NCBI GenBank assembly: GCA_049976845.1
Contig: JBMFHL010000001.1
Span: 43,435 to 107,434, forward strand
Source of the DNA: Candidatus Micrarchaeia archaeon
GTDB taxonomy: Archaea > Micrarchaeota > Micrarchaeia > Micrarchaeales > CABMGC01
Reading direction: 5' to 3'
Length of the DNA: 64,000 nt
Part shown: in pieces, positions 60,001-63,000 of the stretch
Layout of the letters: each line of letters begins with the position of its first letter
How positions within the stretch are numbered: position 1 is the stretch's first letter
Program-made: the position numbers

Positions 60001-63000
60001 GCTGGCTGAGGAACAAGGTGATTGTATAGCGATTGTAACTTTCTCAAAGAAATATCTATTCAAGCTTCTTGGCTACAGTTTGAATGATGAGCAAGTTGCA
60101 GAATATGTGCAAAAGCTCGGCTTCAGCCTTGAGGGGGTAAGTAGTGAGGATTTCAGCATAGACATTACTCCAAACAGACCTGATCTACTTGATATTGTGG
60201 GTTTTGCCAGAACGCTGAAGAATTTTATGCACAGAAGCAGCAAATACACGTACAAAATAAAAGACGATGGGCCTGTGCTTACAATAAACGTAGGCAAAAC
60301 CATTGAAAAGGTAAGGCCATTCATCTCTGCCCTGGTTGTAAAGAATTTAAGCTTAGATGAGCCTACGCTCAGATATATAATAGACTTTTCAGAGAAGTTT
60401 AGTGAAACATTCGGAAGAAAGAGGGCGAAACTTGCAATGGGCATACATGATTTATCTGCAATATCTGGTGACCTAAGCTACGACGCAAAAATGGAGGGGA
60501 GGTTCACTCCTTTAAACATGGACAAGGAGATGGATTTTAAAGAAATAATGAAATACAATGACAAAGGAATTGCTTATGCCCATACTATACGTGGCGTCTT
60601 ATACCCTGTGCTGAGCGATTCCAGGGGAATACTTTCCCTAATACCAATAATAAATTCAAACAGGACAAAAGTCACAACAAAGACAAAAGATATTTTTGTT
60701 GACATAACTGGCACATCGCAGTATATAACAGAGAAAACTGCGGATATATTTGCCGCAATGTTCATGGACCTTGGTGGCGAGGTCAAAAAAGTGAAGATAA
60801 AGTATGGAAAAAAGGCTGTGCTATCTCCAGCAATGGAAAGTGCAACAATCGAAATCCCATTGAGCCAGATACAAGAATCAATCGGAATCACTTCAATAGG
60901 GTTTAACAACATACTCTCCCTTGCAAATAAGATGGGCTACGCAGCATCATTTGTAAACAAAAAAATTAGGTTCAACGTACCTGTATACAGAATTGACGTT
61001 ATAAATGAGCAAGACATAATAGAAGATATAGCGATAGCATATGGTTACGACTACATACAGCAGACCCCTATACTGTCATCAGCGATAGGCAGGTTAGAAG
61101 ACACTACAAAAAGGAACAAAAAACTGTCGCAAGCGATGATAGGTTTGGGCTTTAGCGAAGCATTGAACAACTACTTCACTACCGAAAATACAAATTTTAA
61201 ACTTATGAATGTAGAAGAAATCCCTCACATACAAGTGAAAGAAGCAAAGACGCAAAACATAACAATGATGCGTACGTGGCTTTTGCCATCACTGCTTTCA
61301 AATCTTGGCTCCTCTGTTCATGAAAAAATGCCCCAAAAATTATTTGAATTGGACATGGTATTTAATCTAAAAAAAGATATACCTGTTGAGTCATACAACC
61401 TCGCAGGTGTTTTTGCTTCTTCCAGGGTAAACTTCAACGATTCAAAATCAATAGTAGAGGCAGTTGCTCAATCACTCGGCAGCAATTACAAACTGCAGCC
61501 TTTAACGCATAATAGTTTCATAAAAGGAAGATGTGCCCAGATAACATTCAGTAACGGTATCTCTGGGGTTTTTGGAGAGATAAGCCCTCAGGTTCTTAGC
61601 AATTTTGGAATAGAAGAACCTACAATTGCGTTCGAATTTGAACTATAGCTGATATCGTGATAGTTAAAAAACTAGGGGTAGCAGAAGTAAATGTTTTAGA
61701 TACAATCTATATATTTTTGAAATATGGGAAGCCAGAATCAGTAACTATAAGAAAAAAAGCAGACATCTTTTATCCTGTATTTAATGGTTTTGGATTTGGA
61801 GAGGTAATAAATGTCGGCTATTCTGCAGATGAGAAAATGATAAACAATATATACAAAGTGCAAGAACTTAAGCACGTCTCAAGGAAGCAAGATGAAATGA
61901 GTGCAGAAAAAGAAATCGCACCTGTGGGAAAATTCATGATAAGACATATAAGCTCTTTAGCTAATTCGATAAAGGAAAAAGAAGTAATAATAAATTTCAA
62001 TGGGGGTGCAGTTCTTTACAACAAAAAATATATAGCTGACAGTGGTGCATCTGATCAGCTTTTGAAGAATGTAATTATAGATAAAAATACAGCAGAATCA
62101 GTATATTTGTCAGAGTGTGATATAGTGCTGTGGAAAGATCCTCTTGCTCAGGTGCTCAGAACTCCTGTTCTATGAAATACTTCTCAATTCCCTGATCTCA
62201 TCACTGCTTAATCCATATAGGCTTTCAAAATAATTGGCGGTTTTCTCCTCCCCATACTGCTTTGTGCCTTCGTTGATTAATACCGTAAGCAAAGGCAAGT
62301 AGCTGCTTATAATATCCCTTTTATGCGCATGTACCTCATAAACGAGCTTTGAAACTATCGCCGATTTAACATCTCTCGCTTTCTTTGTAGAACTCATGTA
62401 TTTTATCAAAGAAGGAAACATGTAGTTTTTTATTAGGCTCACATTGCCGTCATTTGCAAGCGAAACACCGGCTATGAAGAAATCACTGTACCTTAAATAC
62501 CCATAATATTTTGTCCTTTCTGCCTTCTCTAAGAAAAAGCTAGCGCTTGCAATATACTTGTACGCTTCCCTTATACTTCTCTTTGATCTATACCTAGTAA
62601 TTACATTCTCGTCTACCCAATTCACCAGCATGCCCAATTCGGTATCCGATTCTGAAAGCGCCTTCCTCGCAGAGTCAAAATTCCTTGAGAGAAAGATCCT
62701 ATCTAGCAGGCCGAAGACCTCAAGCGTCCTGTTCCTTGTGCCCAAATCTTCAATAAGTTCCTCACTCCCATCGATGATGAATTCAAGGTCATTGATTGCT
62801 CCTCTAATATCGCCATTGCTTCGCAAAGCCAACTCCCTAAGTGCAGTTTCACTAGCGCTTTTCTTCTCTTTTTTGACTATCTGAGAGAGTACGTCATACA
62901 CCTCATCAGCACTAAGTTTCTTGAATGCTACTGGCTCTACCTTGCCCCTTAGAAATGCTATCTTTCTATCCCAGTAATCATTTGCTATAAATATAATGGG

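Follow-up and report, generated by a model that had tools for sequence, protein, structure and literature searches.

A predicted AUA start codon of pheT and recurrent probable non-NUG translation starts in core genes of the archaeal order Micrarchaeales

The pheS-pheT junction and the start of pheT

The window, i.e. the whole 64,000-nucleotide stretch analysed here (C1:43435-107434), belongs to the 731-kb, 90% complete assembly of a Candidatus Micrarchaeia archaeon (G000), and genus, family and order are labelled below as in the genome database that was searched. Near its end the two subunit genes of phenylalanyl-tRNA synthetase (PheRS) overlap, with the following features.

58557..60029, + strand: pheS, PheRS alpha subunit, GTG start, TAG stop at 60027-60029 (NF003210, 446.9 bits against a cut-off of 350)
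59978..59980, + strand: TGA closing the pheT frame upstream
60016..60022, + strand: Shine-Dalgarno (SD) site AGGTGAT within the last pheS codons, complementary over 7 bases to the 16S 3′ end GAUCACCUC
60026..60028, + strand: proposed pheT start codon ATA, aligned with the start column of 30 loci
60026..61648, + strand: pheT, PheRS beta subunit, 540 aa when read from ATA (TIGR00471, Pfam)
60032..60034, + strand: ATT, a rival non-NUG start
60080..60082, + strand: TTG, first in-frame NUG, start of a 522-aa call, 18 codons past the ATA

The genome-wide survey's note had placed the pheT start at the ATA lying over the pheS stop, 18 codons ahead of the called TTG and with no in-frame NUG upstream, and both the sequence and the comparison of 30 loci bear this out. 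Behind the TGA only 15 codons are open, none of which is ATG, GTG or TTG (the codons meant by NUG here) and a single one of which is CTG, at 60002; the ATA shares a 4-nt overlap (ATAG) with the pheS stop, and GGTG begins at 60017, 9 nt ahead of it. The 540-aa product scored 435.5 bits against TIGR00471 (cut-off 282.65) over model positions 3-546 of 551, residue 3 falling on position 3, which identifies it as an archaeal PheRS beta subunit over the whole model, and the Pfam B1, B3/4, B5 and CLM domains were matched as well. The B1 match covers residues 3-69 from model position 3 onwards (E = 1.2e-5) and falls slightly short of the curated cut-off. There is also a weak alignment of residues 4-42 to the residues of the same numbers in the PheRS beta chain 3l4g_B, and of residues 7-124 to 7-128 of 2cxi_A.

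Start codons at the pheT column were compared in the best 30 loci from 61 genomes searched, giving ATG in 21, GTG in two and ATA in seven (G000, G002-G006 and G019), so that six of the seven genomes of the genus and one genome of another genus have ATA. The survey's note had given the ATA as kept in 3 of 31 family genomes; the conservation holds, G005 being among the carriers, and it is wider than that figure. All seven ATA loci combine the ATAG overlap with GGTG 9 nt upstream. The next NUG follows 18, 30 or 32 codons on in the six ATA genomes of the genus (+30 or +32 in the five besides G000), while G019 has a GTG at +3, so its ATA is not forced. Across the seven genus genomes, codons 2-18 differ 69, 33 and 198 times at the first, second and third positions, which is a coding pattern. 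Since a change of ATA to ATG would turn the pheS TAG into TGG, the overlap would hold the ATA in place; in G001, which has GTG at the column, the pheS stop is gone at that place. A second set of 53 pheT loci comprised ATA 4, ATG 36, GTG 6, TTG 1, an NUG nearby in two and four cut off, and its four ATA loci are apparently the same genus sequences. Second copies of pheT or eS6 were also seen (G002:C6 and C44; G003:C8 and C27; G002:C2 and C13), probably binning or strain duplicates.

In our estimate, pheT almost certainly begins at a non-NUG codon, and that this codon is the ATA at 60026 is very probable. A non-NUG start at the ATT 60032 instead, which is where the NCBI record P0121 (538 aa, beginning MVTF) starts, is very improbable: just one of the 56 GGTG-bearing genes has the 15-nt distance that separates this ATT from GGTG, the six remaining genomes of the genus encode Val at this position, and the protein in a further NCBI record from the genus group (P0127) begins MAVVTF, at the ATA column. 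A start at the TTG 60080, leaving out 18 residues, is the canonical call (P0001, 522 aa; calls for relatives have 509-524 aa) but seems slightly less credible still: no GGTG precedes the TTG, it is not conserved in relatives, the next NUG of five genus genomes lies at +30 or +32, and the codons that it skips are conserved as protein and form part of the B1 domain. Least plausible of all is that the ATA reflects a sequencing error, or that a -1 frameshift joins PheS and PheT into one product, as might be thought of for a metagenome assembly with pheT in the -1 frame of pheS, because the ATA is common to seven genomes and a short public contig (spanning 59948-60136 with zero differing letters, and possibly from the source sample), no slippery run was seen at the junction, and uS14, RNase HII and the zinc-finger gene described below do not overlap their upstream genes.

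Probable non-NUG starts in other conserved genes

The survey's note had further claimed that ATA or ATT starts at the modal GGTG spacing recur in other genes, and this was confirmed both in order-wide sets and in whole-genome orthologue comparisons of G000 with G004 (same genus) and G023 (another genus). The order-wide counts for uS14, the HVO_2753 zinc finger, eS6 and RNase HII come from 30 genomes hand-picked by the analyst, with the start columns of the first three placed by eye in the alignment and one genome (G003) left out for RNase HII at a contig edge (n = 29). Looser genome-wide screens were flooded by shadow frames and RNA genes, and the counts given here are from stricter ones.

About ten non-NUG candidates, ~1.6% of the conserved genes, were found in G000, and the non-NUG codons align with the start Met of orthologues. 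Four of them are forced, i.e. no NUG precedes the conserved N-terminus: pheT, uS14, an FAD/NAD oxidoreductase (C21:4192, ATT; taken to be the g00600 of the survey's note) and an unnamed gene (C21:10241, ACG). For the zinc finger (C9:16778) the only NUG option is a TTG 7 codons upstream, and for RNase HII, CarS, an HTH gene, nuoM and an unnamed C3 gene an NUG lies 1-5 codons away. The oxidoreductase, uS14 and zinc-finger cases of the survey's note thus stand, and the ATA proposed there for nuoM is plausible, with ATG at the column in G004 and a 4-nt overlap with the upstream stop, but not forced, with TTG at +3 and ATG at +5. The G013 zinc finger, cited there for its ATG, is not a clean comparator, as this gene has an ATA 9 nt behind GGTG and the ATG two codons later; 14 other genomes are clean comparators.

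Within the order, uS14 starts at ATA in 8, ATC in 1, CTG in 1 (G007) and ATG in 19 of 29 genomes (10/29 non-NUG), the ATA directly following a stop codon in G000, G013 and G019. The zinc finger starts at ATA in 13, ATC in 1, TTG in 1 and ATG in 14 of 29 (14/29 ATA or ATC), and five of the ATA cases have an NUG 3-4 codons later or, in G013, two. For eS6, 12 of 30 genomes have TTG, all with GGTG, one has a forced ATA (G023) and 17 have ATG. RNase HII is the extreme case, with ATT 11, ATC 6, ATA 8, ATG 3 and GTG 1 (25/29 ATT, ATC or ATA); the start is forced in 12 of the 29, which lack an NUG both between the upstream stop and the start codon and in the 12 codons that follow, and two of these have a stop codon directly before the start, while the remaining 13 of the 25 have an NUG 2-10 codons away. 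In G000, RNase HII (L749, C4:32500-34000) starts 11 nt behind a small gene, presumably coding for a PRC-barrel protein. A plasmid search with RNase HII gave no result. On a FastTree tree, the minimum numbers of start-codon changes were 3 for pheT, 3 for uS14, 5 for the zinc finger and 4 for RNase HII; the genomes are kin, so the start-codon counts are not independent and Fisher p values are overstated.

For pheT, uS14 and the zinc finger taken together, 28 of the 31 non-NUG starts are ATA, and for RNase HII 17 of the 25 are ATT or ATC. That ATA dominates in genes needed in quantity, and ATT and ATC in RNase HII, suggests ATA to be the strongest start of the three. If these starts are right, the AUH (AUA, AUU or AUC) codon that RNase HII carries order-wide may reflect selection for low expression.

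Further non-NUG candidates were noted in relatives: uS3 (L063, ATA) and an RFC-like gene (L018), both in G007, and sites in G023 on C1 near 594413 and 638855 and in G004 on C2 near 135713, C4 near 13323 and C1 near 237046. They include an ACG start of a small histone-like gene and an ATA of an endonuclease III-like gene, named by the look of their sequences.

Dependence on the Shine-Dalgarno site

Among 56 GGTG-bearing ATG genes of G000, GGTG begins 9 nt before the start in 21, 10 nt in 13, 11 nt in 8 and 15 nt in 1, so the modal distance of 9 nt reported by the survey's note stands, though its count of 99 of 184 genes differs from the 21 of 56 obtained here. The non-NUG starts have SD sites at this normal spacing, complementary to the 16S tail. 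In the order-wide sets, 54 of 57 non-NUG starts have a GGTG at a distance of 9-11 nt upstream, compared with 12 of 16 GTG/TTG and 18 of 74 ATG starts; genome-wide in G000 it precedes 40 of 217 ATG, 8 of 38 GTG and 18 of 31 TTG starts. Pairwise comparison of 619 G000-G004 gene pairs yielded 73 in which GGTG is retained 9-10 nt ahead of a codon that aligns close to the N-terminus, and these comprise 61 with NUG in both genomes, 8 with ATA or ATT in G000 (one doubtful, having an ATG two codons ahead) and 4 with other codons inside genes. By the G023 comparison, the ATA share of SD-led non-NUG sites was 3/8 in G000, 6/15 in G004 and 1/14 in G023, as against 4-6% inside genes.

Controls in other archaea

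Forced non-NUG starts were identified in 4 of 1302 genes at 120 control ribosomal-operon loci from many archaeal groups, from which two loci titled Micrarchaeota had been moved out and the family C6:24766 left out of the count: uS14 with CTG (L309), eS4 with ATA (L315, Sulfolobales), uL24 with ACG (L365) and uL14 with CTG (L310). These four were kept from 26 flagged rows; most of the other 22 (16 were re-read) have a long N-terminal extension and an upstream NUG, and among them are one N run, one that looks broken and two that are off-frame. The corresponding figure for the shared families in Micrarchaeota is 9 of 455, but these loci were picked around uS14 and are kin to one another, and a higher overall rate is not shown. 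None of 120 RNase HII control loci (66 titled as other archaea, 12 bacteria, 2 Micrarchaeota and 40 untitled) lacked an upstream NUG, one of them (L530) looking like a probable ATA start, and 19 further Micrarchaeota uS14 loci contained no forced case. Such starts thus appear to occur in other archaea as well, and what would mark the order is their long retention in particular genes; the predicted non-NUG habit runs through Micrarchaeales and is not peculiar to G000.

The initiation machinery

The initiator tRNA, anti-SD, aIF1, aIF2 beta and gamma, aIF5B and KsgA were found; aIF1A and aIF2 alpha gave no match by motif search. The tRNA lies in the window.

349..423, - strand: initiator tRNA-Met (CAU) of ordinary build, with A1-U72 and three G-C pairs in the anticodon stem (ARAGORN), features of an initiator

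An altered initiator tRNA or anti-SD was rejected as the cause of the non-NUG starts, both being ordinary, and so was loss of KsgA, which is present in 5/5 genomes.

Two deviations that may bear on start-codon checking were observed. One is in aIF1, found in 60 of 61 genomes: the G000 protein (C1:15596-15901, - strand; L031:1477-1782) has Met at the QGD aspartate of solved homologues, and this site is Met (Ile in G003) in all seven genus genomes and D, E, N, S, G or A elsewhere in the order, G019 having Ala plus a one-residue insertion. The matching aspartate is reported to be altered in yeast sui1-1; no text naming D83G was found in the literature searched. The aIF1 substitution as the cause was set aside, as Met/Ile is genus-specific, the site varies within the order and G023 has Asp, yet also an ATA start. 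The other is in helix 44 of 16S rRNA (positions in what we take to be E. coli numbering), where a U1404-A1497 pair replaces C-G (L032, G000:C20:9513-11499, and loci within L600-L623): A1497 occurs in 15 of the 21 genomes with a match (50 searched) and U1404 in 9/9 with both sides read, and G1497 is kept in 5/5 genomes of other Micrarchaeia orders. Within family f3, U1400 (G038 and G051) and C1406-G1495 or G1406-C1495 were seen as well. A1497 is no unique mark, being shared with many other lineages (Thermoplasmata, Aenigmatarchaeota, Dojkabacteria, WOR-3 and other groups). Among five control genomes with non-NUG candidates, the region was assembled in one, which keeps G1497. The 530 loop of L032 has, against the Rfam consensus, G for C near 518 and A for G near 527 (presumed numbering), and the gene, at 1987 nt for 1478 positions in the model, contains an insertion.

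These deviations allow a reading in which start-codon checking is relaxed throughout the order by a loosened P site (U1404-A1497, or U1400 in two genomes, with aIF1 altered to Met or Ile), AUA nearly equalling UUG and being efficient enough behind an exact SD to serve ribosomal proteins, and AUU and AUC forming a lower tier that selection maintains on RNase HII in most of the order; if true, an archaeon would naturally grade its start codons in four tiers. The distribution of A1497 and U1404 favours this reading, but G023 keeps C1404-G1497 and the aIF1 Asp, yet has the forced ATA in eS6, and G038 keeps C1404-G1497 (with U1400), yet has a forced ATA in RNase HII; A1497 also occurs outside the order, several bacterial groups included, the aIF1 site varies, KsgA is in place, and one lineage-level coincidence is no test. 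We regard it as possible but on the unlikely side.

Initiation by an Ile-tRNA (GAU or UAU anticodon), giving an N-terminal Ile, is a good deal more doubtful. In its favour, ATT, ATC and ATA together make up the Ile codon set, a tRNA-Ile(UAU) gene occurs in G000 (C31:5247-5355, - strand), G004 (C1:153720-153809) and G023 (C1:306468-306545), those of G000 and G004 containing an intron and mislabelled by ARAGORN, and a search of 30 genomes turned up no TiaS. A tRNA-Ile(UAU) without TiaS is reported for ARMAN archaea. Against it, tRNA-Ile has G1-C72 and the initiator A1-U72, the tRNA-Ile(UAU) of G023 accompanies a pheT and a uS14 that start at ATG, and CTG (G007 uS14) and ACG (G000 C21:10241; G023 C1) starts exist, which fit near-cognate reading rather than Ile codons alone. 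Two tRNA genes lie on G000:C47 (887 bases), a very A+T-rich contig (22.8% G+C) that is probably not of the organism.

A proposed mechanism

The reading that we favour, at a probability of about 0.8, is that the pheT AUA is a near-cognate start codon fixed by the SD site, read by the ordinary Met-tRNAi and helped by translational coupling. It sets out from the missing NUG, the conserved start column, the dependence on the SD site and the normal initiator tRNA; initiation itself, the N-terminal Met, the coupling and the efficiency we infer from sequence. Pairing of GGUG(A) with the 16S tail would fix the 30S subunit so that the codon 9-10 nt downstream enters the P site, where the ordinary Met-tRNAi (CAU) would pair with A and U and tolerate the third-base mismatch, and the protein would begin with Met. 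At pheT, and probably nuoM, which have the -4/-1 overlap between subunits of one complex, ribosomes finishing the upstream subunit gene may reinitiate at the 4-nt overlap, and this reinitiation would offset the weak start codon. The same SD-dependent tolerance may also serve uS14, the HVO_2753 zinc finger and RNase HII, and about 1-2% of conserved Micrarchaeales genes. A 4-nt overlap was discarded as evidence alone, being common by chance: ATAG or ATAA occurs at gene overlaps 17 times in G000, beside 22 GTAR/TTAR.

If the favoured reading holds, AUA suffices in an archaeon for proteins whose amounts must be fixed, such as uS14 and PheT, and start-codon checking by aIF1/aIF2 would then be less strict behind a well-placed SD than reporter data from bacteria would lead one to expect. 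An ATT efficiency of ~0.3% of ATG in E. coli (Hecht 2017, quoted in PMC10666635) is hard to square with a ribosomal protein unless SD-led initiation in archaea is more tolerant. Public gene calls shorten such proteins, as in the 505-524-aa PheT records, or miss them.

Comparison with known systems

No account of the Micrarchaeales pattern was found in the literature covered, subscription journals being mostly outside it and start-codon tables possibly sitting in supplements; the parts of PMC11834397 and PMC11445065 covered add nothing on such starts. The NCBI record P0121 already starts pheT at a non-NUG codon, but at the ATT two codons downstream of the ATA. Start-codon checking in archaea is known from Sulfolobus, where aIF1 discriminates against non-canonical starts (PMC6237735, PMC8211752), and from Haloferax, where KsgA loss favours non-AUG genes (PMC7897474), and the 16S C1404-G1497 pair is treated in PMC3900107.

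Single non-NUG starts have precedents. The E. coli pcnB gene has an AUU start. E. coli infC, coding for IF3, starts at AUU as well, and initiation at AUU increases when C1402 is no longer methylated (PMC2831307); the Micrarchaeales genes resemble infC in having a conserved SD-led start codon with a third-base mismatch to the initiator tRNA. Unlike them, the AUU of infC is a feedback on the fidelity factor itself, whereas aIF1 of Micrarchaeales starts at ATG in the 30 loci covered and the weak codons are predicted for PheT, uS14, RNase HII and a zinc finger. Among archaea, a 1991 paper deals with AUA initiation of an archaeal gene (via PMC13515050) and, to judge from the title, tested one gene in E. 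coli, in contrast to the several genes conserved across the order here; for Methanosarcina, the part of the Ribo-seq account covered lists CTG and not ATA (PMC11456600).

According to Huber et al. 2023 (PMC10666635), termination-reinitiation is mediated by overlaps of 4 nt, which are over-represented among the genes for subunits of heteromeric complexes. The pheS-pheT pair, and nuoM with its upstream gene, are like those pairs in a 4-nt overlap between subunit genes of one complex, but the overlap is ATAG or ATAA instead of ATGA, and 'ATAG' occurs 0 times in the main text of that paper. The kind of start is thus known, and its predicted spread over core genes of an archaeal order appears to be new; the AUH-start genes of Micrarchaeales would offer a natural test set for archaeal start-codon selection.
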